Origin: Raillietiella orientalis
Taxonomy: Eukaryota
Reading direction: 5' to 3'
NCBI GenBank assembly: GCA_036172245.1
Contig: JAYWIR010000091.1
Span: 1 to 64,000 of the forward strand
Length of the DNA: 64,000 bases
Positions within the stretch are counted from its first letter, which is position 1, and every line of letters starts with the position of its first letter. The notes below the pieces were generated by a model. That model worked only from the letters and a program-made list of their open reading frames with translations, had not been told where the DNA came from and did no database searches. Shown here in pieces: positions 7,781 to 51,937 of this stretch. The position numbers and the translations under genes are program-made.

Positions 7781-9210
7781 CCGCCTCTGCGTCAGAGTTC
7801 GGAGTCTCCGACATATTGATCGAGGTTGGACGCCTTAAGTCCTTTTTCGCGGATCTAAGAAGACGCTGGAAGGACGCAGCGAGCTCCTCCGCCGCTCGCT
7901 CAAAGGCCACTTCGTCGAGCATGCGTTCGACAACGGACGCCACCGCCGGGTCGATAGCCTCCGGCATTAATTTGCCGGAGGGCTGAAAGTCGGCAGCGAC
8001 GAGTGCAATTTTTCCGCTTCGTTCGAACACAGGAATGCGCTTGATGACGACAGAGCAGCGTTTGATATTTTCGCGACGCTGCAAATTCTCGCTGCGTTTC
8101 GCGACATTTTTTTTGGCTTCCTTGAGGCTTTTCTGCCTCTTGGATTTTACTACCTGCCATCCAGGTTCCTGGCCGTTCTCCTCGACTTTGTCCGAGTTTT
8201 CCAAAATCTCGGAGCTGACCTTCACCAGGAGCACGATAGTTATTTTTTGAGAGGCGGTTCTCTTTCGGGCTGCCTTAACTCTCCTTTTTCTGGCCGCGCG
8301 CTTCTTCGCATTCCGTGCGGACGCGACGCGGACTTCATTTTGCGGGCACACTGGAAGAGTGTGCCCGGGTTCCTTGCATTGCTTGCACTGCAAGTGGAAG
8401 CACCTTTTTTTCAGGTGCCCTAAAGTGCTGCAATGCCCGCAGAAATGCGGCTTACCAACATACCAGATGTCAACGGGTTCGCCGTTGACATCCATCTTGT
8501 TTGGTAGGGAGCAACTCTCGCGGACCGTGATGCGCGCGGTAGCCATACCGCAATTCAGGAGATCGTACTCCCAAAACGGATTCGGCTCTTTCCACAACGC
8601 GTGGATAGTTCCAAATTTAACTAGTTGCTTTCGGACAGCCTCTTCGGTCATCCGTAAGGTGATTCCGAAATGGTAAATCACGATAGATCTATCCTCCGTG
8701 ATGGAGAAAAGCCGGCGGTTCCCTGAAGGAACAGGTGTACGCAGCAGACGCTGGGCAAGACTTGCTTCTTTGCAAATCACCTCAACGTACCGTCCATCAC
8801 TCCTGATGGTCATCGCCAAGAGCTCCTCCTGGGGTACTTTTAGGGAGTGCATTGCTTTCGAGAAAGCGCGTGCACTCTCAAATGAGTAAAGGTTGCCTAC
8901 CCTGTAGAGTAGCGGAAGATTGTACATCTCCTATAGGTAGGTTTTCAATTCAGCCGCAGGCGCTTGCGTTGGCGCCGCAGCCACGGAACGCCAGCTTCTC
9001 TCTAGCGAGGGAGTCGCTTCTGTGGGGGCGGTTGCCCTTGCATCCATTGATTCAAGAGGCGACATAGACGTCGGCCCCTTCTTAACATTGGTGATGGTCC
9101 CAGGCATTGCTGCCTAGCTATCATTGAATCCACTGCACACCAAGGAAAAAAAGAAAAAAAAGAAAACCACAAACGCTCAAGAGCGAAACAAAAACCCGTC
9201 CGCTCTCGCT
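7781..9210 (-). mobile_element. Non-LTR element 5' part: 5' UTR and ORF1
   Basis: 5' motif GAGCGGACGGGTTTTT on minus near 9190-9206; ORF 7737-8927 with CGHCSTLGHLKKRC and CKQCKEPGHTLPVC. Confidence 0.88.
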
Positions 9211-14677: not shown

Positions 14678-15873
14678 ACGACAACGCTGCATTCTTTAAT
14701 TTGCTCGCTTGCCTGCTGTTTTTTCTGGCGGTAAGCGAGCTTTTTCTCCATCCTCCTCTCCTTCTTTGATTTTTTGGCCGTAGCCACCTTCCACCCAGGC
14801 TCCTGGCTTGTTCCCTCGACTTCTTCGGCATTGTTCGCCGGGGTCTCGGGTGCGGCCTGGACCTTGGCCGCGGGTGGCACAGCCTTCGCGGCAGCTTTGG
14901 CCGCCAGCCTTTTCTGCAGAAGCCGGGCGCTTTTTTAAGGTTTCTCTTGGAAACCACCCGCACTGCTGCTTTTGGGCACACCTCCCTCGTGTGGCCCATT
15001 GTGCCGCATACTTGGCACTGCACATTGGGACACCTCTTTTTGAGGTGGCCCGACGTATTGCAGAAGCCACAGTATTTCGGCTTCCCCACATACCAGAGGT
15101 CGACGGTTTCGCCTTCGACCACCAGTTTGTGGGGAAGAGTGCAGCCCTCCCGAACGGTCACGCGCGCAGCAGTGAGGCCGTGTTGCAGCATCGTGTAGTC
15201 CTCGAAAGGACTTACTTTCGTCCACTGCGCGTGGACCGTTCCGAACTGTTCCAAAGAGGCGCGAACCTGTTCTTTGCGCATTCGCGCGGTGACGCCTAAC
15301 AGGTGGACCACCATGCTGCGGTCCGCCGTAGTGGGGAGGAGCCTGCGCATCCCCATCACAACGGGGGTTTTAAGCAGTCGTTGGGCCAGCTCTGCATGTT
15401 TGGAGATGACCTCAAAGTACTGACCCCCGCTGCGGATGGTCATAGCGCTGAGCTCCTCTTCTTTCACATCGAGAGCGCGCATGCCCTTCGAGAAGGCGCG
15501 CGCGCTTTTTAAAGAATATGAATTGCCTACCTTGTAGAACAATGAGGGGTTGTACCCCTCCTCTACATAGGCCGACAATTCCGCCGCGGCTGCAGGCGAT
15601 GGCGCCGACACAACGGCGCTCCATGCCCGCGGTGCAGCGGGGACCGATTCTGTGGGGGCGGATGCCCCCACCTCCATCGCCTCTGGGGGCGACGTTGCCG
15701 CCGCCGCCTGGCTCTCCATCGCCTCTGGGGGCGGCGTTGCCGCTGCCCCCTGGCCATCCCTGGTGGTCGCGCTAGGCATCGCTGCCTGATCGACCACCGA
15801 ACCACACGACGCTTGCACTGGGGGAGACTTCCTGGCACGAGGAGCACCGAGAAAACACGTCCGCCCTAGAGCG
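14678..15873 (-). mobile_element. Alpha copy 1, 5' end and ORF1 N-part
   Basis: Starts CGCTCTAGGGCGGACGTGTTTT; RAWSAVVSAPSPAAAAELSAYVEEGYNP identical to ORF 51986-53119; two CCHC knuckles. Confidence 0.92.
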
Positions 15874-17969
15874 CACAAGGCGTTCGACTGCGTGAACCAG
15901 GAGCTCTTCCTAAGGCTTCTGCATCGCATGGGCTTCCCTCCTACCTTAACGACGTTTCTGCGCTCCTGCTGGCGCGCCGCGATAACAAATATCTGTTTCA
16001 GAGGACAGAACGTGTACGACGTGCCGGTGCGCGGTGGGATTCGGCAGGGCGATAGCTTCAGTCCCCTGCTCTTTAGCATCTACTTCGAGTTATGCTGAGA
16101 GCATGCAGGATGACTTTGGCTGCCTTGCGAAGCTCGTGCCCCGGCACGCCTGCCGTGTCCGCATATGCCGACAATCTACTGCTCCTGCTCCCAATGTCCG
16201 TCCCGGCAACGGCAGTCGAACATTTCTTCGACCTGCTAAGCCGTGGGACAGGGCTACGGGTCAACAGGGCAAAATCGTTGATATAGGCATTTGGAGCGAC
16301 ATGGGTAAGACCGTTTAACTGGATCCGCCTGGGGATGCCGACGGGCACAGATCTGAAGTACCTTGGTGTTTCGCTAAGGGACTTCTGCCCGTCAGAAGCA
16401 TGGTCTTCGGAAAGTGGACTTGGCGATCCGCCCGTTTCTTGATAGCAAGTTCCACTTGCCGGATCTAGCTGCGGTATGGAACGCTTTTGCTGTCCATCCT
16501 CCGCCTAATACTCTTTGTTTGCCCCGTTCCCATGAATATGAAAAAAAGGACAGAAGACCTCCTGCGCATCGCCCTTTGGGGCAAGAGAGGCGTTGAGACC
16601 CTTTGATGGACTTGTGCGCTCCGCGTCGTGATGGTGGTCTTGGCATCCTGACGCTGGAGCGCATGAAAATTTAGCTGCGATGGCGAGTGTTCGCCATCGC
16701 AGCAAAGTTGTGGAGCTCCCCGTGGTGTGTTCCTGCTTGCCTCCTTGCCAGACATGCATCCGGAACGGGGGGACTCGCATCTCTTCTTTTATGTCGTGGA
16801 AGGAAGGCAAGAAGATGCAGCCTTCTCCTCGGACGTGCAGCCACTCTGGCGAGGGAGAATGCGTTTATGATATGCAGCCCCGTCAACTCCAGCTTATGGC
16901 TCCAGAAACAGTTTGCACGTGGGAGGTAGTGAATCAGAGGAGCCACGAGAGGTGGAATAGCCTGCGGCGGGGCAGATACTCCCGCTGCACTCTACGCGAA
17001 ATCGTGGAGTGTCCAGCCAGAAGAGCGTGGGCAGAGACGACCTGTCTGGCTACGGTGCTACCCTTCTCACGTAGGGCCCTCGTCAGCAGCCGGACGCCGA
17101 GGTGGCAAGTCTCTTGCCGTATGGAAGGCAGCGAACAATTGTTGAGCGGTTGGACAATTGGACAGCTGGCGGACGCCACAATCCAGAGCGTCCTTCCCAG
17201 AGGACTTCAAGAATGGGGCGAGCTGTTCGGCATCACGACTGATGACCTGAAGTGGCCCTCAGTGATAACTGGAACAAGCATCCTTCCCCTAGAATGGCAG
17301 GAGTCGGCGCTGATGCTGTTGCACTGTGGACTCCCCTGCAATGCCCGCCGCAACCATTAGACACGGGGAATTGTGAAACTATACTCTGCCGGATGTGGGG
17401 AGCGGAAAACCCTCCCACACCTTTTAGTTGATTGTGCTGCCCTTCGGCCCCTGTGAGAACGCTTTAAGTCCTTAGGTATCCTGGGAGGTAGCCTTCCCAG
17501 AGATGTTTTTCGGCTCGTCTTCTTGCGGGACGCCCTGCAGCCAGTTGCTGTAACAGCAGCTCTCTGCTGCGCACGTGGTATTGTGGCAGCTTGGAGTGGA
17601 TCCGACGAAGCAGAGGATTTCGGCGGAAGGGATGCCATTAAGTTTGCAGCTCGCTTTCTGAGAATAACATCCCGATGGCCCCAACTGGGAAATCACTACC
17701 AGGACCTCGTCGGCATGCTGCAAAGGATGGAAGCTCCATGCCACGGGCTGTGATCCCATCCCGGTCCTTCAATTGAGCAGTGTTTGTACTGTTTGTTTTC
17801 TTTTTATTGTTTCTTTTTTTTTACCCCCAGCCCCATCCGTTGACGTGGAATGTCAAGTCGGTCTAGCACCGACCACCCGACATCTCCAGAGAACTATTGG
17901 CCGCATCGGGGCCTTGTACCGCAAAGACTGTTAGTTTTTTAATAAACACCTCGGCTTTCCGGCTGAAAA
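15874..17969 (+). mobile_element. Delta host, right half: RT from HKAFD to 3' end
   Basis: Starts CACAAGGCGTTCGACTGC; homologous to 42481-44590 (-); AATAAA 17941-17946, ends GGCTGAAAA. Confidence 0.91.
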
Positions 17970-18985
17970 CGTTCAAACGAACACCACGTACCGCTTCCGC
18001 CATTCTTTCTCTTACGAGGAACGCGATGCCGCACGTGTGTGGGTGGCCGCACCGCCAAAGTAGCGTTCCGTTTGCACGGTCCTCGATTTCTGCTGCGTGC
18101 TCGTCGGAGAATACGTGACTTTCCTGCAGAAGCATGAGGTCGAAGGATCGCAGGGCGTTTGCTACTAAGCGCCTATTCTCGTCGTTCTGCAGTCCGTTCA
18201 CGTTCCAACACGTAACAGACAGGCGACGAGAAGACGCGATTCCCTGCATTAATGCTGGGAATTTGGCGGCATTTTTGCGCTATTTTTGGCGAGCGGACGG
18301 TATGCAGCACTGCTGGCTGGAGATCACGGTCGCCACAATCCTCCCTGGTGCTGCACGAATTCGAGTGCTCGTGTCCGTGTAACGTCGCTTGACGCTTCGG
18401 GGTGAGCTCTTGTTGCATCACGAACTGCGCTGCGCGTCTCAGGGCCTTAGCCCGTCGCGCTACGGGTTCCGCTCGGGTGATCCGATGTGCGTCGGTGATC
18501 TCAGACTCCGTTTGGGAGTCGGATTGAAGCGCAAGTGCTTATGGCTCACCTGCTCTGTCGATTTGGAGGTGCTCGCGGATGGGACCGCGCACACTTCCTT
18601 TTTCGCGATCACCGGAACATCGTCCCTGGCGATCTCAACTTTCGCGCCATTCGCGTCCGCGGCGGTAGCCTTTGTAACCGCAGAGCGAACCTTCGCGCGA
18701 GTCTTCTTCATCGCGTGACTGTTCTTTGCCTTGGAGAGGCTCTTGGAATTAGATTGCGGAGAATTTTGGGGAGATTTTATTTTTCTCCGTTTCACCGCAA
18801 CCATCCACCTACCGTCCGTTTGTTTGGAGCACTCCTGGACTTTCGTGAGGGAGGCCTCCTGGCATTCCTCCCCAACCGCTTGGGGCGCAGCTTTTGCTGC
18901 ACCCTTAAAAAGCGGCGAAGGAGCAGCCTCCTCGGCAGTCGGGAGATGGCCTTGCGGCTGCCTCGCTGAAGCAGTATCGCTGGAC
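17970..18985 (-). mobile_element. Gamma-like element: ORF1 C-part and EN N-terminus
   Basis: TAATG overlap 18251-18247; CWNVNGL, LQESH; low-complexity ORF1 tail (KKTRAKV) resembling ORF 47958-49793. Confidence 0.8.
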
Positions 18986-19126
18986 AGCCTTGCACACGGG
19001 CATTATCGCCGCCACTGAAGGAAAGGGAGGCGCGATTATTGCTAGTTGCAGTTATACCCATTACCCCGCCAAGGCAGTGTAAAACGACTGCCAAGGCAAT
19101 TTTTATTTGAGTGCCTTAGGAGGGTA
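18986..19126 (+). ncRNA. U4: U4 spliceosomal snRNA-like sequence, full length (probably a retro-copied head rather than a locus with its own promoter)
   Basis: Collinear with canonical U4: 5' AGCCTTGCAC, GGCATTATCG, GAGGCGCGATTATTGCTAGTTG, CCCATTACCCCGCC, GGCAGT/ACTGCC stem, Sm-like site AATTTTTA 19098-19105, terminal TGCCTT/AGGGTA stem; ~141 nt. Confidence 0.88.
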
Positions 19127-22100
19127 GGTCTCTAAATGTTTTGTGTGACCGCAGCTTAGAATTTAAAAACGCCGCGGCAACACAAGGAGAGAAGTCTTGC
19201 ATCCGCAAGCGAAGGCCATGGGAAGCAATCAGCCCATCGTCGGGATGCACGGGACGAGGATGGACCGGAGGCTGACGTCCCTCATGGAAATGGGGGTATC
19301 GTACGGCATTGGAGATGTGGCAGCGACGCCAAGGAGCGCGTCCGCTGCGGCGGCGGCAACGTCAATGGTTGCACCCGTGAAGGCGGTGTCCCAGGAGGGA
19401 CCCGCGGGTGCCCAAGCGGTGCAGAACGTGAAGGATGCGATGCCAGCAGGACAACCTTTTTCGTACGCGGCGGTTGCGGCGGGCCAAGCCAGCGCACAGC
19501 TTAATAGCAAAAACTCAGAAAACCTGAGAGCGGGAACATCACTAGATGTAAGGAGCCGATTATTCGGATCAGCCTGACATTCAAACCAATTCTATTAAAA
19601 ACCGGACTGATCCGGTTTAACAACGTTAGGGAAGTTTTCCTGGCCTTTTTCAAGGCCAACGTGGACTTTGATCGCCTTCAGGCGATCATACCGAGTACAT
19701 CGGGGTTCACAATATACACAGATTGTGAACCCCTGAGAGAAGCCCTAATTGAAAAGGGCATCAACCTCCAAGGGAGGATGGTGCGTGGTATTGGAGAAAT
19801 GCCGTACACAACCATATTTCTTAGTGGAATAGCATTCACCACTGACCAGGAGGAGATATGGGACTTCCTCTCTAAGTACGGAGAAGTTTTGGAAGTAAAA
19901 TTCCAGAACATCTCCGGAAACATCTTTTCGGGCGAAGTTATCGCCAGAGTCAAACTAAACGAAAATACACAGATCCCTGGGATTGTGTATATCGACGAAG
20001 CCTCGCAAGGGGTGTTCGTTTGATACAAGCAGCAACCGGTATTTTGCACCGGGTGCATAAACTTTGGGCACCGACTGGGCTCGTGCCCTAGGTCTCGCTG
20101 CTTTCGCTGTGGAAGGCAGGGCCAGCAGGTGCGCAATTGCTACATGCCAGAGGTGTGTTCCTTTTGCAAGCAGCCTGGACATGCGAGGTGGTGTTCTCCG
20201 GAGTTTGCCAACTACCGGACTTTGCGTGGCCAAACTCCCGTGCGGGAAAAGGTCATGGCGGAGGTTAAAAAGAGACCTTAAAAAATAATGAAGAAGAGGA
20301 AGGCGAATAAGGCCGCTCCGATTTCAGCAGACGGCTTTGTAGAAATAGGGAAGAAGGAAAAGAGGAAGATGCTCCTTAAGGAGCAGGAAACACCTCTTAC
20401 CCCTAAAGAAGAAGCGGTAGAAGGCGATAAAACAGAAATTGCGGAGGAAGGCGAGGTGGCGAAAACGCCAGAACCCATCCCAGTCACGCATGAAGCCCTG
20501 CAGATCGCCCAAGAAGTGATGAAACTGGCAGAAGTTATGGAGGCGCAGAGCGGACCAAGGCAGGAGCAACTCCTGCAAAAGATCTGCAATGCGCAAGGAA
20601 CGGTCAACCAGGTGGCGGAGAATGTCGAACGCGAGAAGCTAGAAAAAAGGCTTCTCGACGTAAAGCCAAACTTCTGTGCCAAGGTTGCGTTAGAGGTCTT
20701 ACCTCGAAAGCTAGCCGCTCGATCCGAGCACTCCATCAAGGATGACGACCACAACGACTTCACCGGCACGGAGAGCGATGCCGGGAGTGAAAAGTCCGCT
20801 TCTGCGTCTGAAAAACGGCAACGGTCTACCCGACAAAAGAAGCTCAGAAAAGCAATAAAGTGAACCCCTTAATGACCTCGTCGCTGGTCACAGCCAGGAG
20901 GCTCAACATCGTCTCCTGGAACGTTAATGGATTGATGGACCAGTGGAAAAGAAAAAAAATAATGCGTTGGATCGCACATGAAGACATCGGCTGTTTGCAA
21001 GAGACCCACAAGCTGGGTCAGCAGATCATCGTTGAAATGGAACGACGCCTAAACATGCAATTGTTCGTCAGCAAAGGACAGAGGAACACTAAAGGGGTGG
21101 CGGTGCTGGTGAACAACGACCTGGCCCATACAATCCTAGAAGTCTTCTGTCCCATGCCGGGACGAATCTTCGGTGTTCGACTAGCGTGTTCCGCAACTGT
21201 TCACCTATTTTTGATGAGCGTGTACGGAACACACGCGCAGAAACATCGGTGCGCGGAAGCGCTGCATGCAGCACTCCGGCAGAAGGTCGCACCCAAGGAC
21301 GTCGTGATCGTCGCCGGCGATCTGAACATTGTGAACAAGATTATTTTCACCTGGGACGCCAGAGGAAGAAAGGCGTTTCAGCGGTTGTCCGACGAGTTCG
21401 GACTTCTGTGGTGAACAGCTATCCACAATCCGATAGACCACGTCCTACATAGCACAGAGCTTGAGAACCGCATCGAGGGTTTTCGCGACACGCCCAGCTC
21501 ACTGTCCGATCACCCGCTGGTGCGGTTCTCCTTGAGAACGGAAGATCCTTGGCGGAAGCAGAACACAAGGGAGGCCCTCATCTGCATGCCCGCCTTGTTC
21601 GAGACGCTTCCCGGTCATTTAGAACTTATCGAGGCGATTCTGAGGACCAGCACCATCCAAAGAGTCGCCGACTGGGACAGCCTGAAACATCGAGTCCATC
21701 TGTTCTGCAACATGCAGTACGGGGACAACAACTAAGGCAGGAAGCGTACCGGGAGCCGAACACTGAAGAACACTTCCTCTCAAAGTACTGGGAAGAGTAC
21801 GAGAGATGCTACGTCTTCACAAACATCAAAGGGGAAATCGGCGTGCTGGAGAAGAAGAATCTAGCAACAGACATCTTCTGCATACAGTACGACGGCCACA
21901 GCCGGCACACGTCGGAGGAAATCATGGAAGACTTCCAGAGGCATTACACGGGACACTTGTAGCACCAACATTTGTGCCCGGCGACAAAAAATGCTTTTAT
22001 GGGCTACTTGGAGAAAAGAATCGATGAACGCCCGCGGAAAATTTTGGAAGAGGTTTTCTCCGAAGAAGAGGTGAAGGCTGCGTTTTGGGAACTACGCAAG

Positions 22101-24487
22101 GACGTTGCTGCAGACCCTGATAGTGTTCCCATCTCTCACTACCAGCAGTACATGCACGCCTACCTGAGCCTGTTTCACCAGCTGACCCTTTGCATCCGGC
22201 AAGAAGGCAGATTGCCAGTGTCATTTTACGAGAGCAGGATGAGATTGCTGCCCAAGGGCGGAGACTTAACTAAGGTTTCCCAATGGAGGCCAATCTCAAT
22301 CCTCAACTCGGACGCCAAGTGGTTGGCAAAGATCTGGACCAACCGCTTAGCCAAGGTCATGCCGAAGCTAATCACTCCAGTCCAGACATGTGCGGTGCCA
22401 GGACGTCACATGTCGAACAATGTCAAGTGTGCGCAGGCCACCGTGGGACTCAGCCCATACATCGGCGAGAACCTGGTGCTGGTCTTCACAGGCATGGAGA
22501 AGGCCTTCGATACCATCGACCATAAGATGCTGCTGAAGATTCTGGGGAAACTGGGTCTCCCGGAGCAGTTCAGCAACTTCGTGAGGATGTTACTTAGCCA
22601 TCAACACTTTCACATCAAGATCAACGGTGTGGAAACAGCGGCTATCAGGATGGAACGAAGAGTTCGCCAGGGCGACAAGATAAGTCCGATGCTGTTTGTT
22701 ATCTACATGGAAACTCTCACATCATTCATCGAAAGGAGGGGTCGTATACAAGGAATCAAGATGGACGACCAGAAGCTTACTCATCTTGCCTACGCGGATG
22801 ATCTCCTCTCCTTTATCAGGGAGGAACGAGATCAGTATGCGTTCCTGGATGTATTGGAGATGATGGAAAAAGGACTTGGGCTAAAAATCAATGCCCAGAA
22901 AAGTCAAGTTTTGCCCGTCGGAATCCTGGATCTCTCCCCACTAACAAAATAAGGATTCCGAACGGTCGATAACGCCAAGTACCTTGGAGTCCAAATCGGC
23001 GACGACTGCGCGTGGAAGCTGCTATGGACCGAAATCCTCGGAAAGGCAGCAGCAGAAGCAACGAAGTACACGCAAGCGGATTTCAATATGAAGCGGAGGG
23101 CTAACCTGTGGAATGGAGTAATCCTTCCGAAGATCCTCTTCGGGGCGGCCTTCGGCAGAACGTACAGAAAAATCAGCAAAGAAGTGAAAAAGTTGCTACG
23201 AAAAGTACTATGGGGTACTTACAGAACATGAGTAAGACTCGAACCCTTGTGTCGTCCCAAAGAGGAAGTTGAGACCGGAATGATGTCGCTTGCCTATTCC
23301 GTGGATATCATGGATACGCGACAAATCCTGGAGATCGCCGCTCATTGGGATGACTGGCCGTATGCGGCGCACAGGGCCTATTCGTTGTTACTGAACAACT
23401 CGAAGGGCCCAATGACTGCACTGCTAGGCCGAGTAGAAAATTGGAACACGATCGATCCCACCTGGAAGAGGAAACAGCAGTTGGTACAAAAACACCAACT
23501 GGAGATTGTCCCACGAAGCAGGGAACTCTGGCAGGAGAAATCCATCCTGGTGATCCCTAGAATGATTGAAGTGCCTGCTGACACAAGAAGCTGGATCCGC
23601 CAGCGGCCCAGAGTTACACTGAAGAAAATACAGGAATGGAGAAGAGGAGGAAACCTTCATCATTCTCGTATACTCCGGTATATCGAGATGGTGCTGAGAA
23701 AATTCACTCACAGGACTCGCGAGGTGTGGAAAAACCACAACAACTTCGCGTGGTCCAGGGTGGATAGGAAAAAACTTCGCAGGATAATTAAGGAGGAGAA
23801 CCAGGACGTCAGTGCCCTCCAAGAAGCAGCCAATCGCTACGGGAGCGATCACATCAACCTGCTGTCGATTGGCACAACATTATGGAGGAGTGACCTTCCG
23901 CCGAACGCTCAGGACGACCTCCTGATGTTCTATCAGAGAGGAATACTGAGTGGTTCCAGGATCTACCACATCACGGGAAACGTGGATGACGGCAAATGCG
24001 AGGCGTGTGGCTAGTGGGAAACTAGCTACAGATCCTAACCTGTCCCACAATCCAACGGGACTGGGAGAACGTGGAAAGGGTTATAGCACTTCCCGACCTC
24101 ACCACCACGGAAGTCCTAGCGCGAATGTTTCAGGGGAACGCCAATGTACCCCTGTACAACCCGATGGCTAGGATAACCATTGCCTTGTTCATCAAAGCCA
24201 TCCTGATCCGATGGTGGAAGATGGAGAAAACCCGAACGGCACCACATCACATAGGTATCCTCAGAGGACTCGACCAGAAGGAAATTGGAATAAGGAAAAT
24301 ACGGGAAAGTGGAAGCTTGGACGTACAAGCACATCCTTCGCAGGATAGTAAGTACTGCCCAAGCCGAAACCCATACGTAGTCCTCAAAAGTGCAGAACCA
24401 ATGTGGACTCCAAGGAGTGACTCCCCAAGTGATAGTGGAATAAACTTTAAACTGCGGAACAAAACTTTCAGTTGCGTGAATGAATAA
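19127..24487 (+). mobile_element. Divergent near full-length L1/Tx1-like element, degenerate
   Basis: ORF1 with RRM-like segment and three CCHC knuckles (20046-20195); ORF2 SWNVNG, LQET, GDLN, WRPISILNSD, EKAFD, RQGDKISP, YADD, CEACG; lacks the shared 5' motif and 3' hairpin. Confidence 0.9.
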
Positions 24488-24489
24488 TT

Positions 24490-25853
24490 TACCCCACCCC
24501 TTGTGTTATTTGTGGAAAACTGCCTTGTTGGGGAGGATGCAGCTGGTTGCACCGTGTTTTCAAGCAACGCACCGTTGCTTTCTCCGGCGGGTATCGCCGG
24601 ACTTCCAGCAGCCTTCGTAAGGTTTCCTGATGAAGCCTCCGAAATGGAAGAGGGCTCAAGGAGACGGTAACCACGCAATCTTCATTCGCGTGTCCTCCTT
24701 TCGCGTTGTCGTACGGAGCGACTGGTTTTACTGATCCCAGTTCGCGAGTTGTATTTCCGCAATCAGCTACTGGGACAGTAACGGTACGTGCGGAGCCCTC
24801 TCTTTCTTTTTTAAAAGGCTTCCCTTCCGCGCGATTGCCCTTTTGGGGCTTTGATGCTGAGGGAGCCAACTTTGAGACCGCGCTCGTTCCTTTTTTATCT
24901 TCGGCTTTTCGCGAGCCTCGCTGTTTTTTTTTTAAGAATGCTGTATTCTCCTCTGTGCACTCTTTGGCACGCCTGATTCTAGCAGCCTCCTTTTTTTTCT
25001 TTATGTCCGGGCACTTGCTTATTTCGTGCCCAGACTCCTTACAGTAGCGGCACTTCTGGGAAGAACATTCTTTATTCCGATGCCCGTCTTTGCCGCATTG
25101 CTCGCACGCGCGAGTTTTGCCAACGAACCACAGGAGAACGACCGTGCCGTTGACCTGTAGCGTGGCAGGCAGCGTGCGGCGGTTCGGAAAGGTTACCCTA
25201 ACCGCAGCAAATCCTGTATGGACGGAAGTAATTTCTTGTAGGAACTCTCCTTTCTCCACACCGCATGAACGGTGACGAATTTCGCCAACGCGTCCGTCAG
25301 TTGTTTGTTGTTGATCTCCGGCTCTACGACCGAGAGAACAGCGACAAAAGACTCGTCCATCGCGGAAGGAAAAACTTTCTTTCCGCGGATGGACGAAGGA
25401 TTGCAGAGGAGCCTTTGCACAAGTGCAGCCTGCTTGCATCGCACCTTCACATGGCCTAATGCTGGAACAGGCATGAGTGCTATGAGGTCCTCTCGCACTC
25501 CCACACGGAAAAGTTCGTCCGTGAACTCCTCCCCAGTCTTACCTACCTTACTTACGTTATAGCAGAGAGCAGGCTTGTAGACCTGGGCTACATGCGCTCG
25601 CAACTCCGCCCCGTCGAGGAGGCATCCTTGTACGGCTGCAGATGCAGCCACGTCCGCAAAGCTCCTGGCCGGTGGTGCGGGGCTCGCGCACGTTGTCGCC
25701 ATCGTTCCAGCTGCGGGAAGTTCCTGAGCCACAGGCTCGAGTTCTTGTACGTTGCGTTGTTCACTGTTTATCCTTAAGAATGTACAGTGGGATGCACAAA
25801 CACAACCAAACAGCGGAACCACGGAGCAACACGAAATCACGTCCGTCTCTCGT
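24490..25853 (-). mobile_element. Gamma copy, 5' end and ORF1 N-part
   Basis: 5' motif ACGGACGTGATTTC near 25833-25846; ARSFADVAA, CEQCGKDGHRNKEC, CRYCKESGHEISKC. Confidence 0.9.
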
Positions 25854-26187
25854 GAAAGCGAACGTTGAAATCGCCTGTAACCAGATGGGGATTCAGCACG
25901 CCTTCTTCGGTCAGCCACTAGAGACGGAGGGCAAGGTAAAAGTCTTTTCTCGCTCTCCTATTCGTCAGGTCTGCGCCGCTTGGGGCGCACATGTTCATCA
26001 CGATCAGGTCGATCGAGTCGGACCACCTGAGAGTCATCTGGACGACACGACCGTGATCGTCGAGCCGCACGCCCCGCGCCGCGGCTTAGACGGCTGGCCG
26101 AAGCAGGAAGACAAAATAGCAACTGTTTTCTTTCCCACACCTATTCCATAGCCGCCCCTCAGACATTCGTTCGATTTCTCGCGCCCT
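25854..26187 (-). mobile_element. Endonuclease fragment ending at GDFNVR (host of gamma)
   Basis: Minus strand reads ...WSDSIDLIVMNMCAP...HLVTGDFNVR; GDFN codons 25875-25864. Confidence 0.85.
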
Positions 26188-26505
26188 TACAGTGCAGACG
26201 TGTTTCCGCGTCTATCCGCGCAACGATCGAGCAACTTTGTTTCAGCGTTCTTGCTCGCACTTGTGTGTTCCTATGGAATCTGCCGTGTAGCATAGTGCAA
26301 CATGGCCAGTACACAGGATAGTGTGGAGGAGCAAGCCACTGGATGCACTTCAGCGGCACTTGAAGTGTCCGCATCCTCCGTAATGGTTTCCTCGCCCCCA
26401 ATGAGGAGTTACACCGCCGTTACCTCCCAAAGACCAGGACCCTGCGATGCGGAGTTGCATGCATATGTGTCATCAGGATGCATGCCTGCACTCCATTATA
26501 AGATC
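26188..26505 (+). mobile_element. 5' end and ORF1 start of another copy
   Basis: AGTGCAGACGTGTTTCC 26191-26207; RSYTAV...AELHAYVSSGCMPALHYK. Confidence 0.75.
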
Positions 26506-27410: not shown

Positions 27411-30126
27411 TCCCGTACGCGAGAGCGACTCCTAAGAGAAACGCCTCGCTCCTACTGCTCCCAGACGGAGCCCCGGCCATAAGGGAGGAAGAGAAGGAAG
27501 AACTGGACGTGCCTTTCACGACTGATGAAATCTTCTATGCGATAAAAGGGCTCAACAGGCGGAGAGCCCCAGGGGAATATTGCTTGCCAGCGGAGTTTTT
27601 TCAATGATTCGCTGAAGAGATGACACGCCAGGTGCATAGGTTGACACAGCTGATCCGGAAAGATTGCGATGTTCTTTCTTAGTTCCGGGAGGCTAGGATG
27701 AGGCTTCTTCCTAAGGGTGGAGACCTCCTTAAGTTGAACAACTGTCGTCCGATCACAGTCGCGATCACGGAAGTCAAGTTGCTCGAAGTGCTGTGGGCTG
27801 CGCGGCTCGGGCAGAAAGCCGAATCTGTAATTAGCCTGGAGCAGTCATACGGTGTTCCCAGGCGAAATGTTGTGGCTAACTTGTGTTACGCCAACACATG
27901 GTTCAATGTGCAACGAGAATTAAATGAGCGTAAGGGATCTTTCCGCAACCTCAATTTCAGGGTGACCGCTGGTCAGAGTGGGGACAGCTGGGCGAGCTAG
28001 GGTGCCTTAGCGATCGCAGTCGATCTGCACAAAATGTTCGATTGCGCAGACCAGGAACAACTTTTGGAGCTCCTGGATCACATGGGCTTCCCGAACACCT
28101 CAACTGCCTACCTGCGCGCCTGCTGGCGCAATGCGATCATCAATTTCTTTTTTCAGAGGACAGCACATGTTCGACGTGACTGTAAGACGCGGCATCCGGC
28201 AGAGTGACAGCCTGAGTCTCCTACTCCTTAGCACCTATTACGAGCTGCTGTTGAGAGCATACAGGGCGACATTGGCTGCCCTGCCAAGCTCGCGTCCAGG
28301 TAGGCCAGCCGTGTCGGCGTTTGCTGACGATCTTTTGATCCTGCTGCCTATGTCCGCACGGCATCGTCAGTCGAGGATTTCTTTGACTTGCTGATCCGTA
28401 GGACAGGATTACGGGTGAACAGCACGAAGTCGTCGCTGGTTCCGGTTTGTGAAACGTGGGCCTGACGACCTCAGTGGATCCGCCTGGAAATCCTGGAGGG
28501 TGTATATCTGAAGTGCATTGGCGTTCCGCTGGGGGACTTCTGCCTGTCAGAAGCCTTGTCAGGTGGTCCACAAAAAGTGGAGTCAACGATCGGCATGCTC
28601 CTGGAAAACAAGCTTCACTTGCTGGAACGGACCGCGATATGGAACGCGTTCGCGGCCACCCTCCTTCGCCCCCAGTTTTTGGTTTGCCCTGTACCCCGTG
28701 AATTGAAAAAAGAAGAAACCTCCTACGCATCGCCCTGTGGGGCGGCGGGACGCTTTGTGTGCCTTCAAAGAATTTGTGCGCTCTACGTCAGGACGGAGGT
28801 CTTAGCGTCCTGAAGATACAGAGAATGGAAACAAACCTGTGGTGGCGTACTCTAGCCATCGCTGCAAAAATGTGTAGCACCCCTTGGTGCGTTCTAGTTT
28901 GCTTTCTCCCCAGACGTGTGTCCGGGACTAAAGGACTCGCGTCTTGTATTCTGTGCCTGGGCCGGAAAATAAGAAGATGCGGACTTCATCTGGGACTCAT
29001 GGCTCCCCTGGCAAAGGAGAGCGGTTGGATGGCCTGCAGCCCCTCCAACCCCAGCGCATGGCTGGAAGAAACAGCTATAACTTGGGCAAAGTTTAACGAA
29101 ATCAGTGAAGAATCCTGCAACTGCCTGCGTCCCGGCATTCACACCCGCCGCACGCTGCGGAACATGAACGTGTGCCCCGCCAGAAGCACTTGGGTGCTGA
29201 CTTCCCCACTGGACACGGCACAGCCTTTCTTACGAAGGGAGCTTCAAAACAGACGGAAGCCGACGTGGCAAGCCTCGAGCCAGATAGCGGGCAAAGAGAA
29301 GGATCTGAGTGGATGGACCATGAAGGAACTGGCTGACGCCGCGACCCCAAAAGTTCACCCGCATGGAATAAGAAGATGGGGCGAGCTGCTTGGCATCCCG
29401 GCGGATGACCTAGAGTGGCCCCCGTTATTTAGAGACGCATCCACCCTGCCCCTCAAGTGGCAGGAAACGGCGCTGTTGTTGTTGCACTGGGGTCTTCCCT
29501 GCAACGCGCGCCGCCACCACTGGACGTGGAAGAATGTTGAACAGAACTGTGCAGTGTGCGGGGAGAAGGAATCCCTCCCCCATCTGTTAGTGGACTGCGC
29601 TGCCCTCCGACCCTTGTGGTGAAGTTTTGCTACGACCCCCCGGAAGCCAGTCGGCAGTACCCCCATACACGTCTTGAGACTACTCTTCGTGCGATCCGCC
29701 GTGCTACCAGCCTCAACACTTGCAGCGCTTGGCTGCCTCCGAGGTATTGTTGCCGCGTGGAGCGTAGCCAACTGAGGAAGTAGCGACCGGGACCCCATCG
29801 TACACGCGGGTCGCTACCTGCGAATCGTGATCGGCTGGTCCCATCTGAGAGCTATTAAGACGGACATTGAGGGCATCCTGTCGAGGATGGTATCTTCCTC
29901 CAGCAGGCTGTGATCCCTTCCAAGCCCTCCAAATAATTTCTTTTTGTGTATTTCATTTATTTTTATTTTTCTTTTTACACCCTGTCCCCCTCCACTGCCG
30001 AGGAGAGTGTATTCGGTCTGCGAACCTGCTTTCTGGCAGATCCCATGAACTATTGGCTGTTGCGGGTCCTAGCATCGTAGATGTAAAGTGTTTATTAATG
30101 AACGCCTTGGCGTAGCTTGGTGAGAA
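27411..30126 (+). mobile_element. ORF2 linker-RT-CCHC to 3' end, degenerate
   Basis: LLPKGGD, VDLHKMFD, FADD, CAVCGEKESLPHLLVDC; ends AATGAACGCCTTGGCGTAGCTTGGTGAGAA. Confidence 0.9.
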
Positions 30127-33768: not shown

Positions 33769-36700
33769 GGCGAGAAAAGGACGCAACATACTGAAGAGCA
33801 CTTCAACGAGGCACACGAATCCACGAAGAATCACGTGACTTTTTCGTTGAGCGCATTGCGTACAATTGGAAACATCCAATGGGCGTTCCATTGGGAAGCA
33901 CATCGAACATAAGATAGACGAGAACATTCGGCGAATGACGACGGAATTACCAAACAAGAACGAACAAAAATAACCCAAAAGATCACAATTTAAAGGGAAA
34001 CAACAGAGGCAAGCAATGTGACATGGAATGCATGAAAAGTTGGAAACGGAGGAAGAAACCATTATATTTCAAGCATGCAGACTCAGAACCCGTATGCAAT
34101 TGCGTTCGATGGATGGACCCATGCGAAGCGCGCACGTCACTTTCGGAGGGTCGCAGCTCTCGTTTACCGGATTCGCGACTCTGCATCCAAATTTGTTCAT
34201 GTCATCTCCAGAAGCCATCAATAACCTGCAATGATGACTTCCGTGAAAGGGCACATGGTCCAAAAAACAACACTGAGGACCAACGCGGATTCCGAAAGTT
34301 TAAGTGGACTATGTCTGTACTTTGGAAAAGACGTAACAGCAGCACAAACGCAATGTAAAGTTCCAGCCTCGCAAAGCAGCAATCACTTCTTCAGGGCGTA
34401 CTGCGGAGCCCAAGTCTATCGTGAAACTCGGCACGAATATGAAAAATTCAGTTCTGCGACGCGATGAACGCAAGTTGATACGAAGCTTCGATTCGACGGT
34501 AGCATCCACGGTGAAAAAACACGTGCGACCCAAGAGGAACCAGACCACATACTTCCGCAGTTAATATAGGGACGAACTGAGGGCAAAAGAAGCGTCCCGT
34601 TCCTCTCAGTGGGGCAATGAAAGTCGACTGCGTGACGCCAGATACAAGAAGCCTCACGCAAGAGGAGGAAGCGCGGTCCGACCAAATATACAATGGCTGT
34701 CTCTAATAATGCTCCTTACGATGGTGAACAAGATGCGCCACAGCATGCTGCCACCTTGTAGAACTTCACACAGGACGAGTGGTTTCTTGAGCGCTGCATT
34801 CAAGAGAGGCGCGAAACTTCTCCAGCGTTTATACCAACTTACGCGCATTGCCAGCCAATAGCAGCCATGGTCAACACTTGTAACCACATTACTCAAGTGT
34901 GTTGAAAACTCATAGTTCTGGAAACCTCCTCATCGCATTTTCGGTGATGCAATACTAAAGCATTCACAGCTGAAGGAACGTTAGCTGAAAATCAGATGAG
35001 CGGAGGCACCACGAATCAACGCTACAAAGATGCGTTTACGATTATCAGCAAAACATCGTGTGTAGGAAAGGATCACTGCAGCCTTCCGATCCGCGCGGCA
35101 AAACGGCAAAGAACCTAATGCAACCAACGCAGAATTCATCCAAGAAGTGCTGTTCCAACAGTAGCTACTTAGAAGAAATACCTGAAAATCAAATGATGCA
35201 AAGCGAATGATCTCCGTATCCTAGAAAAAAGCACCTAGCAGCTAGATATCAAAAACTAAATGTCCACAGGAACAATGGAATATGAAACGCCGACAAAATG
35301 CAAAGCAAAATCGCTGCCGTTTTTTGGCTCCTTCGATCTGTGTTGCTCTAATGTTGCTCGTCAGCTGAGCACTGCACGAGATAGGCTTTTTCTGAACGAA
35401 GACATCCAAGAAGACTGTCGCAACGCTCCCAACACGTATGTCGCAATCGAGTCCTGTTCCCCGTTCTGAATTCCCGTCTCAAGCCAGATTTGTTGCGACA
35501 ATGCAAAATCTATACCAATAATAATAAAACGCTGCACCTCTGCGGCGGAGTATGTTATCCAACACAAGTATAGGGAATTTCTCCAGCAAGTAGGGAAGCC
35601 ATGTAGAGAGTGAGAGAGTTCGGAACTTACAGGTAGGCCGTCAACTTCCGAGCTGGTTTTGCGAGAATTACTTGATGACGCTTTTTGTGCTGCGTTCGCG
35701 GTTCAAATGCACAAGCTGAGATGTGCACGCATCAAAGAATGTGACGAAGTCTTCCATGAAGTCAGTGACATGAGAGATTCAACCTCAAGCACGAGTTGCA
35801 TCGCTTGGCAGTTCAGAAACAAGATACGCCAAGCTTCCTCCATGTATCAGTTCTCAGTACATTTGTTGTCAACTGCACTCTCCATTCTGATGTTTTTTTT
35901 CAAAGCGGGCACCATACCGTTGGCAAGAGGGCAGAAGTTCTCTTACAAACTACCAATTCTAGCTTAAAAGTGAACGACAGTACCGGATGCTCCCTTGGAG
36001 ATTCTCCGAAAGAACACCACGTGTTGCGTCCCGCGATCACTGCACATTCGCTTTTCAAAGAACAAAAAGGAACTAGAGAAAAACCAAGAAACCTGCATTT
36101 GTAACGAAAATGTGATCGGGATCAAAACAAACAGGAGAGATTTGGCAGACAAAAACAATAGAATTAAGTGCGTCGTTCGAGAACGCACAACAGAGAGGTA
36201 AAAGTTCCCGAACACGGCAATGATGGCGAACCCCGACAGCTGGGAGGGCATTTCTTATGTCCTAACTCGACGGTGCGAGATGCTGATTCTGCATTCACTA
36301 GACCCCGCACGGAAGCAAAGACCTCAAAATCGAATTTTGGTCCACCTGACTGGATCCGTGTGCTAACTTTTCCTGCGTATCGTTTCCTAGTTTCCATGGA
36401 GCATAACTCCTCTTGGAGGATCACTGTGTGAGGAACATGGCAAACATGCCTCCAAACGACAGCTGGCGATCTCAGAAGGCTTGAACTTCCTAGAAGCGAG
36501 TAGTGCGGCAAAGAGTCAGTACATATGTAGTACGCATTTCTCGTGCTTGTAACCGAAAGGAATCAAGATTTCGAATCCGCGTTGCAGGGTGCTGGAATGA
36601 GCATCCTCAGGCAAAACACGATGCAGCGTCATCACCTGTTTCGGAAGTTAGCCCAAGCTGCGAAGTTTCCGATCACCTATACTCTTGGCCCGGCACGAAT

Positions 36701-37518
36701 GAGCTGGAGTTTCTTCTAATCTACTGCGACCAAAAAATGCCCCGACTTGCACATGAGAACCGACAGATGGTTGCCGCGGTGGTGATCGGAACTTAAAGAA
36801 AGAAAAAGTGCTCCGTAAACATTCTCATTGTCAGCTCATGCTCATTTCTTATTCCAGGAAGCATCAAGGGAACAAAGAAGACGTCATCGTCTGGAATGAA
36901 TTTAACATCTTTCGCGAAAACGATCGTGAGTAACAGCGTAGACAAAAACTTGACGACAATTGCAGGCAGATCTGCTGCAGTATGGATAGGCGCACAAATC
37001 TGTTGCTTGTTTGCAACCAGTATGAGCTGTTTGACGCTTGGAGTCCCATTGCTGTACCTGGAGAGGTATTTGCAAGACCGATTTAGGATGAAAACTCGTT
37101 GGCTGCAGTGGAAATACACGCGCATACTTTGGATAGCATCGGATGCTTCCCGTTAAGCGTCACGACTCGGCCCCGTGATCCCGCATTGGACCAAACCATG
37201 CAACACACGCTCCAATCAGTGTTGCAGAAAGACCAGGATTCCAGAAAGAGCCGGACTGGATGAAGGGCTGCTGCTGCTGCGGACGTTCTGAGAGTTTCGT
37301 TGTGCCACAAATTTTTTTGGCTTCGCCGAATTTTCTGCAATCGCATTGTGCCTTGCGTGCGGGAATAGTGCGCGCTGCACAACTGCTGTGAGAGAGCTAC
37401 GATCGTCAGCCGCTTCGCGACTCCTCCTTTTCACTTGTATGAGTGAGGCGCCTCATTCGAAACTCAGATAATGTTACACCCAGGAAGACTAGACTCGGTG
37501 GCGGCGCCTAGAGGCGCC
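33769..37518 (+). repeat. Left arm of ~3.7 kb inverted repeat
   Basis: Collinear reverse complement of 38779-42479; paired ORF translations (e.g. 36503+ vs 39451-, 33658- vs 41994+). Confidence 0.95.
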
Positions 37519-38778: not shown

Positions 38779-41700
38779 CTAGGTGTCCGCTAAGGCGCCG
38801 CGCTCATGCGATTAAAAAGGCGGATTCGCAAAGCGGCTGACGATCGTGGCTCACTCACAGCATTTGTGCACCGCGTACTCTTCCCGCAGACAACACTCTC
38901 TGCGATTGCAGAAAAGTCGGCGAAGTAAAAAAAATTCATAACACAACGAAACACTCAGAACGTCCGCAGCAGCAGCAGCCCTTCTTCCAGTACGGCTCGA
39001 TCTGGAATCCTGGTCTATCTGCAACACTGATGGAAGCGTGTGTTGCATGACATGGTCCAATGCGGGATCATGGTGCCGAGCCGTGTCGCTAGACGGAAAG
39101 CACCCGAGGTTATCCAAAGTTTGCACGCGCATTTCCACTGCAGCCAACGAGGTTTCATGTTAAATCGGTCGTGCAAATATCTTTTCCAGGCACAAAGGTG
39201 GGATTCCAAGCGTCAGACAGTTGACATTGGTAGCAAAGAACCAACAGATTTATGCGCGTATTAAAACTGCAGCAGATCTGCCTCCAATTGTCGTCAAGTT
39301 TTTGTCTACGCTGTTACTCACAATCGTTTTCGCGAAAGAAGTTAAATTTATTCTAGGCAATGACGTCTTCTTTGTTCCCTCGATGCTTCCTGGAACAAGG
39401 AATGAGCATGAGCTCAGAATGAGAATGTACACGGAGCACTTTTTTTTTCTTTATGTTCCGATCACCACCGCTGCAAGCATCTGTGAGTGCTCATGTGCAA
39501 GTCGGTTCATTTTTTGGTCGCAGTAGATTAGGAGAAACTCCAGCCCATCCGTGCCGGGCCCACCGTATAGGTTAGCGGATACTTTGCAGCTTGGGCTAAC
39601 TTCCGAAACAGGTGATGACGCTGCATAGTGGTTTGCCTGAGGATGCTCATTCCAGCACCCAGCAACGCGGATTCGAAACCTAGATTTTTTTCGTTTACAA
39701 GCACGAGAAATTCGTACTTCATATGTACTGTCTCTTTGCCGCACTACTCGCTTGTAGGAATTTCAAGCCTTCTGACATCGCCAGCTGTCTTTTGGAGGCA
39801 TGTTTGCCATGTTCCACATACAGTGATCTTCCAAAAGGAGTTGGACTCTAGAGAAACTAGGGAACGATGCTGAGGAAAGGTAAGCACTCGGATTCAATCA
39901 GCTGGACAAAAATTCGATTTTGAGCTCTTTGCTTCCGTGCGGGGTTCAGTGAATGCAGAATCAGCATCTCGCACCGTCTAGTTAGGACATAGAAAGTGCC
40001 CTCCCAGCTGCCGAAGATCGCCAACATTGCCGTGTTCGGGAACTTTTTCCTCTCTGTTGTGCGTTCTCGAACGACGCACTTAATTCTATTGTTTTTATCT
40101 GCCAAATCTCTCCTATTTGTTTTGATCTCGATCACATTCTCTTTATAGATGCATTTTTCTTCGTTTTTCTCCAGTTCCGATTTGTTCTTTTAAAAGCGAA
40201 TGTGCTGTGATCGCGGGACGCAGCACGTGGTGTTCTTTCGGAGAATCTCAAAGGGAGCATCCGGTACTGTCGTTCGCTTTTAAGCTAGAATTGGCAGTAT
40301 GTAAGAGATCTTCTGCTACCTTGCTAACGGTATGGTGCCCGCTTTGAAAAAAAACATCAGAATGGAGAGTGCAGTTGACAACAAATGTACTGAGAACTGA
40401 TACATGAAGGAAGCCTGGCGTATCCTCTTTCACAACTGTCAGGCGATGCAACTCGTGCTTGCGGTTAAATCTCTCATGTCACTGACTTCATGGAAGACTT
40501 CGTCACATTCAGTGAACCCTTCACTTTTCAGCTTGTGCATTTGAACGGCGATCGCAGCACAAGAAGCGTGATCAAGTAATTCTCGCAAAGCCAGCTCGGA
40601 AGTTGACGGCCTACCTGTAAGTTTCGAACTCTCACTCTCTCTACAAGGCTTCCCTACTTGCTGGAGAAATTCTGCATACTTGTGTTGGATAACAGACGCT
40701 GCAGCAGAGGGACAGGCGTTTTATAATTGTTGGTATAGATTTTGCGTTCTCGCAACAAATCTGGTTGGAGAAGGGAATTCAGAATGGGGAACAGCACTCG
40801 ATTGCGACTTACATGCTGGAAGCGTTGCAACAGTGTTCTTCTTTGTGTTCGTTCTAGGAAAGCATCACTCGTGCAGCACTCTGCTTACAAGTAACATAAG
40901 AGAAACGTGGCCTAGAGGAGCATAAAACCGGCTGCAATTTCCCATTGCTTTTTCTAGGCCTTTCAGTTCGCCTTGTTCCTGTGGACATTTAGTTTTCGAT
41001 ATCAAGCTGCGAGGTCCTTTTTTCTACGATACGGAGTTCGTTCGCTTTGCATCATTTGATTATCAGGTATTTATTCCAAGTAGCTACTGTTAAAACAGCA
41101 GATCTTAAAAGAATTCTCCGCTGGCCTTGTTAGTTTCTTTGCCGTTTTGCCGCGCGAATCGGCAGACTGCATTCATCCGCTCCTTCACACGCAGGTTTGC
41201 TGATAATCGTAAACGCATCTTGGTAGCGTTGATTCGTGGCGATTTCGCACGTCTGATTTGCAACTAACGTTCCTGCAGCTGTGACTCGTTCAATATTGCA
41301 TCACAGATACTGAGACAAAGGGCTTTCCAGAACAATGAGTGTCCGACACACTTGCCTAATGTCGTTCCAAGTTGTGAACATGGCTGCTATTGGTTGGCAA
41401 TGTGCGTAATTCGGGAAAAACGCTGGGGAAGTTTCGCGCCTCTCTTGAATGCAGCGCTCAAAAATCCACTCGTCCTGCTTAAAGTTCTAGAAGGCAGTAG
41501 GATGCTGTGGTGCATCTTGTTCACCATCGTAAACAGCATTATTAGAGAGAGCCATTGTATATTTGGTCGGACCGCGTTTCCTTTTCTTACGTTCGGCTTC
41601 TTGCATCCGGCGTCACGCAGTAAGCTTTCATCGCTCAACTGAGAGGAACGGAACGTTTCTTTAGCCCTCTGTTCGTTTGCATGCCAACTGCTTAAGGATG

Positions 41701-42480
41701 TGTTCTGGTTCCTGATGGGTCGCGCGCGTTCCTTCTCCGTGGATGCTACCGTCGAAACCAAACGTGGTCTCCACTTCCGTTCATCGCGTCGCAGAAAAGA
41801 ATCTTCCCAATTTGTACCGAGGTTGTCGATAGACTTGGGCTCCGTGGTACTCTCTAAAGAAGTGATTCCTTCTTTGCGAGTCTGATACTTCACATTGAGT
41901 TTGTGCTGCTGTTACGACTTGTGCAATGTTCATTTATCTTCACTTACCCGTTGAGGAAACTGCGTTGGTTCTCATTGTCCTTTTTCTGACCATGTGCGCT
42001 TTTACGGAAGCCATTCTTGCCGGTCACTGATGGCTTCTGGGGATGACTTGAATAAATTTGAATTCATACTCGCGGATGCGCTGAACGGGAGCTGCGACCT
42101 TCCGAAAGTCAAGTGCGCGCTTGGCATGCGTCCATCCATCGAACGCACTTGCGTACGGATTCCGAGTCTGCATACTTGCAAAATAGTGATTTTTTCTTCC
42201 CTTTGCAGCTATTCCTGCATCCTATGTCACATTGCTTACCTCTGTTGTTTCCCTTTAAATTGTCATCTTTCGGGTTATTTTTGTTCGTTCTTGTTTGGTA
42301 ATTCCGTCGTCATTCCCCGAATGTTCTCGTCTATCTTATGTCCGATGTGCTTCCCAATGGAACGCCCATTGGATGTTTCCAATTGTACGCAATGCACTCA
42401 ACGAAAAAGTCACGTGATTCTTCGTGGATTCGTGTGCCTCGTTGAAGTGCTCTTCAGTATGTTGCGTCCTTCTCTCGCCA
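38779..42480 (-). repeat. Right arm of ~3.7 kb inverted repeat, cut at its outer end by a delta 3' end
   Basis: See left arm; homology stops at the TTTTCACCC junction at 42481. Confidence 0.95.
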
Positions 42481-51919: not shown

Positions 51920-51937
51920 CTAGAGCGGACGTGTTTC
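51920..51937 (+). promoter_or_regulatory. Conserved 5'-terminal motif (candidate internal promoter or initiator), representative copy
   Basis: GAGCGGACGTGTTT variants at element starts near 4983-5000(-), 9190(-), 15852(-), 25833(-), 26191, 27393(-), 45425, 47904. Confidence 0.6.

Follow-up and report, generated by a model that had tools for sequence, protein, structure and literature searches.

How a complete copy of the U4 small nuclear RNA (snRNA) came to stand directly in front of a long interspersed nuclear element (LINE) is the question raised by a 64,000-nucleotide stretch of the Raillietiella orientalis assembly GCA_036172245.1 (contig JAYWIR010000091.1, positions 1 to 64,000, forward strand; the whole stretch is referred to here as "the window"). 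It is densely packed with the remains of nested LINE insertions, and a first-pass annotation made from the sequence alone had singled out positions 18986 to 24487 as a full-length U4 snRNA fused to the 5′ end of a near full-length L1/Tx1-like element. Our analysis indicates that U4, a short leader, the LINE and its 3′ untranslated region (UTR) make up one inserted unit, running from 18986 to 24590/24602 and lying within a single target site duplication (TSD) in an older LINE. The explanation that we favor is a dead chimeric retrocopy formed in a single event.

A complete U4 copy without a promoter

The whole window was scanned with Rfam (cmscan) at the curated gathering thresholds, and the scan was repeated at E ≤ 1. 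Only one match reached gathering level, to the U4 family RF00015 at 18986 to 19124 on the forward strand (63.9 bits against a gathering score of 46; E = 6.6 × 10−12), and it covered model positions 1 to 138 of 138 without truncation, bearing out the annotated fusion of a full-length U4 to the 5′ side of the LINE. The relaxed scan returned three matches, namely U4 and two unrelated ones below threshold, with no second piece of U4 and no other snRNA-like sequence in the 64 kb. Model position 1 was aligned to the A at 18986, which agrees with the earlier placement of the U4 start (+1) at this base. From there the alignment spans the 5′ stem-loop, the central stem-loop and the Sm-type site (AAUUUUUA, 19098 to 19105) and stops in the 3′ stem at 19124; similarity had been described as running through the Sm site and the 3′ stem into the leader, and the alignment supports this as far as 19124. 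An alternative 3′ stem closing at 19132 folded no better than shuffled sequences (−5.8 kcal/mol, z = −0.11), and the end of U4 is placed between 19124 and ~19132. The copy lies in sense orientation directly 5′ of the LINE.

Non-standard pairs were flagged at five marked positions of the Rfam alignment, and several mismatches, such as those at the last base of the Sm site and in the bases that follow stem I, fall on positions conserved in the consensus; these differences may reflect decay, lineage-specific change or both. The external snRNA-type promoter expected of a functional gene was not found 5′ of +1: the bases up to 18985, judged from their context and not with a promoter model, are the TSD and coding and linker sequence of a minus-strand LINE. 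The same neighbor had been annotated as antisense DNA of open reading frame 1 (ORF1) that left no space for an upstream promoter; the lack of space holds, and the adjoining DNA turned out to be the ORF1 tail and inter-ORF linker of that LINE. On the 3′ side of U4, inspection by eye gave no convincing match to an snRNA 3′ box, using general consensus forms, which may not be those of this organism. The U4 copy is a promoterless pseudogene (retro-copy) without function.

An L1-superfamily LINE, nearly complete and dead

The LINE part is full-length or nearly so. Its ORF1 starts with the ATG at 19218 and holds a weak stretch resembling an RNA recognition motif (RRM; 19814 to 19903, RRM_1, E = 0.002, 18.4 bits, under the cut-off of 20.7), as well as three Cys knuckles read by eye from the translation at ~20045 to 20194, the middle one degenerate. 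This frame is broken twice, by a frameshift between 19508 and 19574 and by an in-frame stop codon at 20021 to 20023. ORF2 carries an endonuclease of the apurinic/apyrimidinic endonuclease (APE) type (Pfam Exo_endo_phos, PF03372, 20872 to 21414, E = 1.1 × 10−12), a reverse transcriptase (RT; RVT_1, PF00078, 21999 to 22952, E = 2.3 × 10−29) and a C-terminal Cys motif near 23990 to 24060. It is interrupted by in-frame stops at 21412, 21960, 22950 and 23229 and by at least two frameshifts (near 21465 to 21732 and 24012 to 24026), and alignments of distant ORF2 relatives cross three of the stops in one frame (21771 to 23351). With stops and frameshifts in both ORF1 and ORF2, this LINE copy is dead.

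Among solved structures, the best match to the RT was human LINE-1 ORF2p (8sxt_A, E = 6.6 × 10−37), with R2 proteins at E = 2.8 × 10−23, and the endonuclease matched APE1 (E = 3 × 10−5) and the L1 endonuclease (E = 9 × 10−5). An APE-type endonuclease N-terminal to the RT in ORF2, together with an RT nearest to that of L1, places the element in the L1 superfamily, as a member of L1 proper, Tx1 or another of its clades. Neither of the traits expected of L1 proper was found, there being no poly(A) and a cleavage site that is not A/T-rich (target GCA^GTATCG).

One insertion within an older LINE

The 12 nt that precede U4 return ~100 nt beyond the ORF2 stop with 11 of 12 positions identical, the sole difference being C versus T within a CpG. 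This repeat is the only word of 7 nt or more that is shared between the 60 nt 5′ of 18986 and positions 24440 to 24900. When random anchors took the place of the U4 start for the left word and the 460-nt search space was kept the same, matches of at least 11/12 were obtained at 27 of 8,272 of them (0.3%). No further copy of the 12 nt preceding U4 stands between U4 and the LINE.

The first-pass annotation had ended the unit at 24487. That position is the ORF2 stop, and the unit continues beyond it through a 3′ UTR of ~100 nt to 24590/24602. Its terminal 40 nt consist of two tandem perfect hairpins, both GC-rich (24562 to 24580 and 24583 to 24601; −21.9 kcal/mol, z = −4.3), and none of 200 shuffles folded as stably. 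The second hairpin (7 bp) straddles the boundary, such that the last bases of the unit pair with the right copy of the TSD; a straddling perfect 7-bp hairpin was found at 474 of 63,600 random positions. This overlap may be a coincidence, or the 12-mer may be the element's own 3′ end, with the target chosen or primed by base-pairing.

Both flanks of the insertion belong to one minus-strand LINE (the host), the zinc-knuckle part of whose ORF1 reads from 25439 down to 24492 (−). The two host halves were aligned separately to a homologous plus-strand copy at 48048 to 49674, on which position 24906 of the right half corresponds to 48851 and position 18765 of the left half to 49383. On that copy 24602 projects to ~49155 and 18985 to ~49163; because these projections lie ~8 nt apart, the U4 and LINE unit alone separates the host halves, and the host LINE is continuous once 18986 to 24590/24602 is taken out. 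The repeat flanks U4 and the LINE together and not either of them alone, which makes two separate insertions very unlikely and also argues against a U4 gene in situ, excluded moreover because its "promoter" region would be host LINE sequence. Coordinates of the unit and its surroundings are collected in Table 1.

Table 1. Features of the U4 and LINE unit and of the host LINE that surrounds it (positions in the window).
Positions	Strand	Feature	Basis or remark
17975..18985	−	Host LINE, continuation: ORF1 end, linker, endonuclease start (18252-17989)	Pfam, protein comparison
18974..18985	+	TSD, left copy, 12 nt, GTATCGCTGGAC, ending exactly at U4 +1	11/12 identical to right copy
18986..19124	+	U4 retro-copy (pseudogene), full length; 3′ stem maybe to ~19132	RF00015
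19125..19217	+	Leader from U4 to ORF1 ATG, presumed LINE 5′ UTR	85-93 nt depending on U4 end; no match to 5′ motif of other families
19218..20281	+	ORF1, broken	Frame reading; RRM-like stretch, Cys knuckles
20282..20860	+	Lys/Glu-rich open frame between ORF1 and ORF2	No family match
20872..24487	+	ORF2, broken	Pfam, frames, structure comparisons
24488..24590	+	3′ UTR without poly(A); hairpin 1 24562-24580 (8 bp); hairpin 2, 5′ arm, 24583-24589	Folding
24591..24602	+	TSD, right copy, 12 nt, GTATCGCCGGAC; also loop and 3′ arm of hairpin 2	Direct-repeat comparison
24603..25845	−	Host LINE, 5′ part: 5′ motif 25833-25845, then ORF1 with two CCHC knuckles	zf-CCHC E 0.011, under cut-off

Other LINEs of the window and searches for relatives

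No second copy of the U4-linked LINE was found in the window, as blastn of 18986 to 24700 against it hit only the query itself. Protein pieces of the element share 24 to 43% amino acid identity with 17 other LINE segments of the window; these represent different families and therefore cannot test whether the U4-linked family normally carries a U4 head. What they do offer is a set of LINE 5′ ends. A 5′ motif, CGGACGTGWTTTC, has 12 matches at ≤2 mismatches in the window, where 3.34 are expected and none of 100 shuffles reached 12. Nine of the 12 sites were examined further (14093, 25223 and 26904 were left out), and seven of these are followed by further shared sequence: 9190 to 9202 (−), 15851 to 15863 (−), 25833 to 25845 (−), 26195 to 26207 (+), 45428 to 45440 (+), 47909 to 47921 (+) and 51926 to 51938 (+). 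None of these seven other recognized LINE 5′ ends of the window bears an snRNA head. None of the 12 matches falls within 18986 to 19300, which bears out the earlier remark that the motif shared by the other 5′ ends is missing from this element. In the other families, where it was read, the ORF1 ATG lies ~70 to 170 nt 3′ of the motif, which may act as a conserved internal promoter or mark the point where transcripts start. The families bearing it are 65 to 88% alike in DNA and have a T/C-rich stretch after the motif.

At their 3′ ends, the main LINE families of the window have no poly(A) and finish with "AATAAAC - GC hairpin - TGA(A/T)AAC" (17930 to 17969 [+], 30075 to 30112 [+], 62840 to 62876 [+] and 42481 to 42520 [−]), which suggests that the LINEs of this genome have stringent, structure-recognized 3′ ends. 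It is also worth noting that the word GATTTCAA, which encodes the "GDFN" of another LINE's endonuclease, stands 10 to 30 nt before two LINE 5′ ends, at 25846 to 25880 (−), adjoining the host of the U4 unit, and at 47885 to 47908 (+), adjoining the copy at 47909. This adjacency may reflect site-preferential nesting or an old duplicated composite.

Relatives were sought outside the window in 5.8 billion protein clusters, in metagenome contigs and in prokaryotic genome contigs. Among proteins of near-equal length, the RT piece gave 35 hits from 1,844 candidates, the top hit at 29% identity and the highest identity, 36%, over partial coverage; among longer proteins it gave 130 hits from 4,538 candidates, the best at 36%. 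Of 41 pattern matches in metagenome contigs, six were confirmed as loci at 23 to 35% identity (83% was reached at one locus, over the 18 residues 175 to 192 alone), and none of the six carries an Rfam family at gathering score. The prokaryotic contigs yielded 33 pattern matches, none of which was confirmed. All of these are weak negatives, the collections searched not including the organism's own genome.

Origin of the chimeric unit

The U4 and LINE unit is, at a probability that we put at roughly 55%, a dead chimeric retrocopy produced in a single event by a template jump. A "stringent" LINE of the L1 superfamily (no poly(A), structured 3′ end) would have started target-primed reverse transcription on its own RNA, primed at a nick in the ORF1-ORF2 linker of the older LINE, and the LINE RNA would have been copied to or near its 5′ end. 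The RT would then have switched templates, moving to the 3′ end of a mature U4 snRNA and reading it as far as the capped 5′ end, and the joining of the complementary DNA to the upstream target would have left the 12-nt TSD around the whole of U4 and LINE. U4 would have arrived without an snRNA promoter and would have decayed along with the LINE. While the jump as the route that joined the two RNAs is something that we infer, the arrangement is the one that such a chimera should have: the snRNA lies 5′ of the LINE, in the same orientation and 5′-complete, and one TSD surrounds the bipartite unit. Template switching has been described as a general property of LINEs, covering L1, L2 and RTE in Anolis and MINE in Magnaporthe, with U6 chimeras formed also with L2 and RTE elements in Anolis; for LINEs with stringent RNA recognition (L2, RTE), snRNA copies are described in the same source as arising only as template-switch chimeras (PMC4476161).

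The first-pass annotation had offered two origins: a one-off chimera made by template switch or ligation, or a family that has U4 for a head and owes its transcription to read-through from a U4 gene. The one-off chimera fits everything measured (U4 +1 at the TSD, a collinear host, seven LINE 5′ ends without a head), and the second proposal is weighed below. U4 ends between 19124 and ~19132, and the bases that follow are presumed to be LINE leader. As the leader measures only 85 to 93 nt and the motif of the other families stands ~70 to 170 nt before the ATG, there is little room for the 3′ flank of a U4 gene, and the length of the leader relative to the 5′ UTRs of its neighbors counts weakly against such a flank between the two parts. 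Several observations weigh against a template jump. With a single copy, a mature U4 abutting the first base of the LINE is unprovable, and read-through would give the same outline; U4 is, moreover, 3′-complete by Rfam. The significance of the repeat, given its frequency among random anchors, is moderate and not overwhelming, and a plain TSD leaves it unexplained why the right repeat doubles as one half of a hairpin at the end of the element.

Transduction of U4 from the 5′ side is the alternative that fares best, and we consider it unlikely. A progenitor LINE would have lain immediately 3′ of a genuine U4 gene, whether by chance or through targeting, and a co-transcript produced by read-through from the U4 promoter would have been retrotransposed; a lineage that targeted U4 genes would be expected to leave such copies. 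The outline expected is the observed one (a sense U4 beginning at +1, with both parts inside a single TSD), the absence of poly(A) and a cleavage site that is not A/T-rich are like those of sequence-directed LINEs, and LINEs that target snRNA genes exist, Keno (Tx1 clade, APE) and Utopia being described for U2 (PMC4494074; PMC4640811). However, with only 85 to 93 nt from U4 to the ATG, no more than a few bases could have separated the progenitor from the 3′ end of U4, and even at E ≤ 1 the window shows no other fragment of U4. The known snRNA-targeting LINEs, as described in PMC4640811, interrupt the gene and leave the remainder of the snRNA on their 3′ side, whereas the 3′ flank here is host LINE. 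A likeness between the target and U4 was also considered as evidence for this route and rejected: there is a resemblance of the target/TSD to U4 positions 15 to 24 (GCAGTATCGC versus GCATTATCGC), but it is weak. Aligned without gaps, the 20 nt before 18986 match the U4 copy at 9/10 at best, a score that 241 of 4,978 random 20-mers also reach; for the 3′ junction the figure is 246 of 4,978.

Read-through could also be the habit of a low-copy LINE lineage residing immediately 3′ of U4 genes. Such a lineage would be transcribed from the RNA polymerase II (Pol II) promoter of the snRNA gene and would spread in the form of a U4-LINE co-transcript, with base-pairing between the structured 3′ end of the element and the nicked target. 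We give this proposal a small chance. The pairing between 3′ end and target, if true, would explain the 12-nt "TSD" as half of a hairpin and also the faint likeness of the target to U4 positions about 15 to 26, and the lineage would be the first U4-associated transposon, with a route to a promoter that is new for a LINE.

It is improbable that the copy is an ordinary member of a propagating family with a U4-derived consensus head, in the manner of SINEU. Retroposons headed by snRNA do exist (SINEU; PMC4494074), and the LINE part, being (nearly) full-length, would have been coding-competent at insertion. Against this stand the single blastn hit in the window and the absence of close relatives from the protein clusters, metagenome contigs and prokaryotic contigs, a search space outside which the organism's genome lay. 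In addition, U4 genes use external Pol II promoters, and a U4 head would bring no promoter with it.

Joining of the U4 and LINE RNAs by ligation, before reverse transcription, is similarly doubtful. Two mechanisms have been put forward for U6/LINE-1 chimeras, and ligation of the RNAs is among them (PMC13174262). Its product at the DNA level is the same as that of template switching. The route described for U6, however, needs a cyclic-phosphate 3′ end, which is not known on Pol II snRNAs such as U4, and ligation also requires an uncapped 5′ end on the LINE RNA.

Chance adjacency of two independent events (a U4 retropseudogene and a LINE), or a U4 gene in situ, is highly improbable, since for all the density of nested LINE insertions in the window the repeat brackets both parts without recurring between them, and the DNA upstream of U4 is host LINE coding sequence that resumes after the insertion and leaves no promoter.

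Comparison with known snRNA-associated retroelements

By analogy with published cases, the unit probably belongs to the U/LINE chimeras, which have been described in mammals, lizards and a fungus. Like the chimeras described (U6/L1, and the "Group IV" snRNA pseudogenes; PMC4476161; PMC13174262), it has its snRNA on the 5′ side, in sense and complete from +1, within one TSD, and the snRNA copy is promoterless and dead. Unlike them, its snRNA partner is U4 and not U6, its LINE part is (nearly) full-length where theirs is a 3′ fragment, and the LINE has neither poly(A) nor a TT/AAAA-type target. Among 253 catalogued chimeras, 70.9% involve U6, 10.5% 5S and 8.5% U3 (Law and Burns 2026, PMC13174262), and according to Doucet et al. 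2015 (PMC4476161) chimeras with U4 in mammals are extremely rare. The unusual traits of the present unit are thus the U4 partner, the essentially full-length LINE part and a LINE without poly(A) in a non-mammalian eukaryote. If the unit is a one-off chimera, a phenomenon documented mainly in mammals would extend to a distant eukaryote and to a LINE that ends in hairpins and has no poly(A), which would support end-of-template jumping as a general trait of LINE reverse transcriptases; chimeras of this kind would also be raw material for snRNA-headed retroposons.

With Keno (Tx1, APE) and Utopia (restriction-like endonuclease), both associated with U2, the unit shares a LINE joined to a spliceosomal snRNA and no dependence on poly(A). 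In the accounts given of them, however, these elements cut the snRNA gene at a fixed internal site, have the remainder of the gene on their 3′ side and occur in many copies (PMC4494074; PMC4640811), whereas the present LINE is known from one copy, has the whole of U4 in front of it and is followed by the TSD and host LINE, with no 3′ remainder of an snRNA gene. The snRNA-gene-targeting transposons reported by 2015 are given as Keno and Utopia (U2), Dada-U1 (U1) and Dada-U6 (U6) only (PMC4640811), and our literature search found no description of a U4-specific transposon. A U4-linked family would therefore add a new snRNA target, and a strategy of promoter borrowing, to the few snRNA-associated transposons.

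SINEU elements, with heads derived from U1 or U2, resemble the unit in having an snRNA at the 5′ end and in an origin thought to lie in template switching, and they differ in being short, non-autonomous, multicopy families with a shared head-body junction (Kojima 2015, PMC4494074), while the body here is an autonomous LINE known from a single copy. In LINE-1 5′ transduction, foreign sequence likewise lies 5′ of a full-length LINE within one TSD, but the cases described carry exons of messenger or long noncoding RNA, or unique flanks, and not a whole snRNA up to its mature 3′ stem (PMC13174262).

Further features of the window

Away from the U4 unit, a lower-GC block at 30 to 43 kb (37 to 48% GC, versus ~55% elsewhere) has only three open frames of at least 150 amino acids. 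It contains an inverted repeat with arms of ~3.7 kb that are 86% identical (33769 to 37453 and 38793 to 42479). A tandem array with a 57-nt period and four to five units (62 to 84% identity) lies at 46657 to 46941, inside a LINE-rich region.

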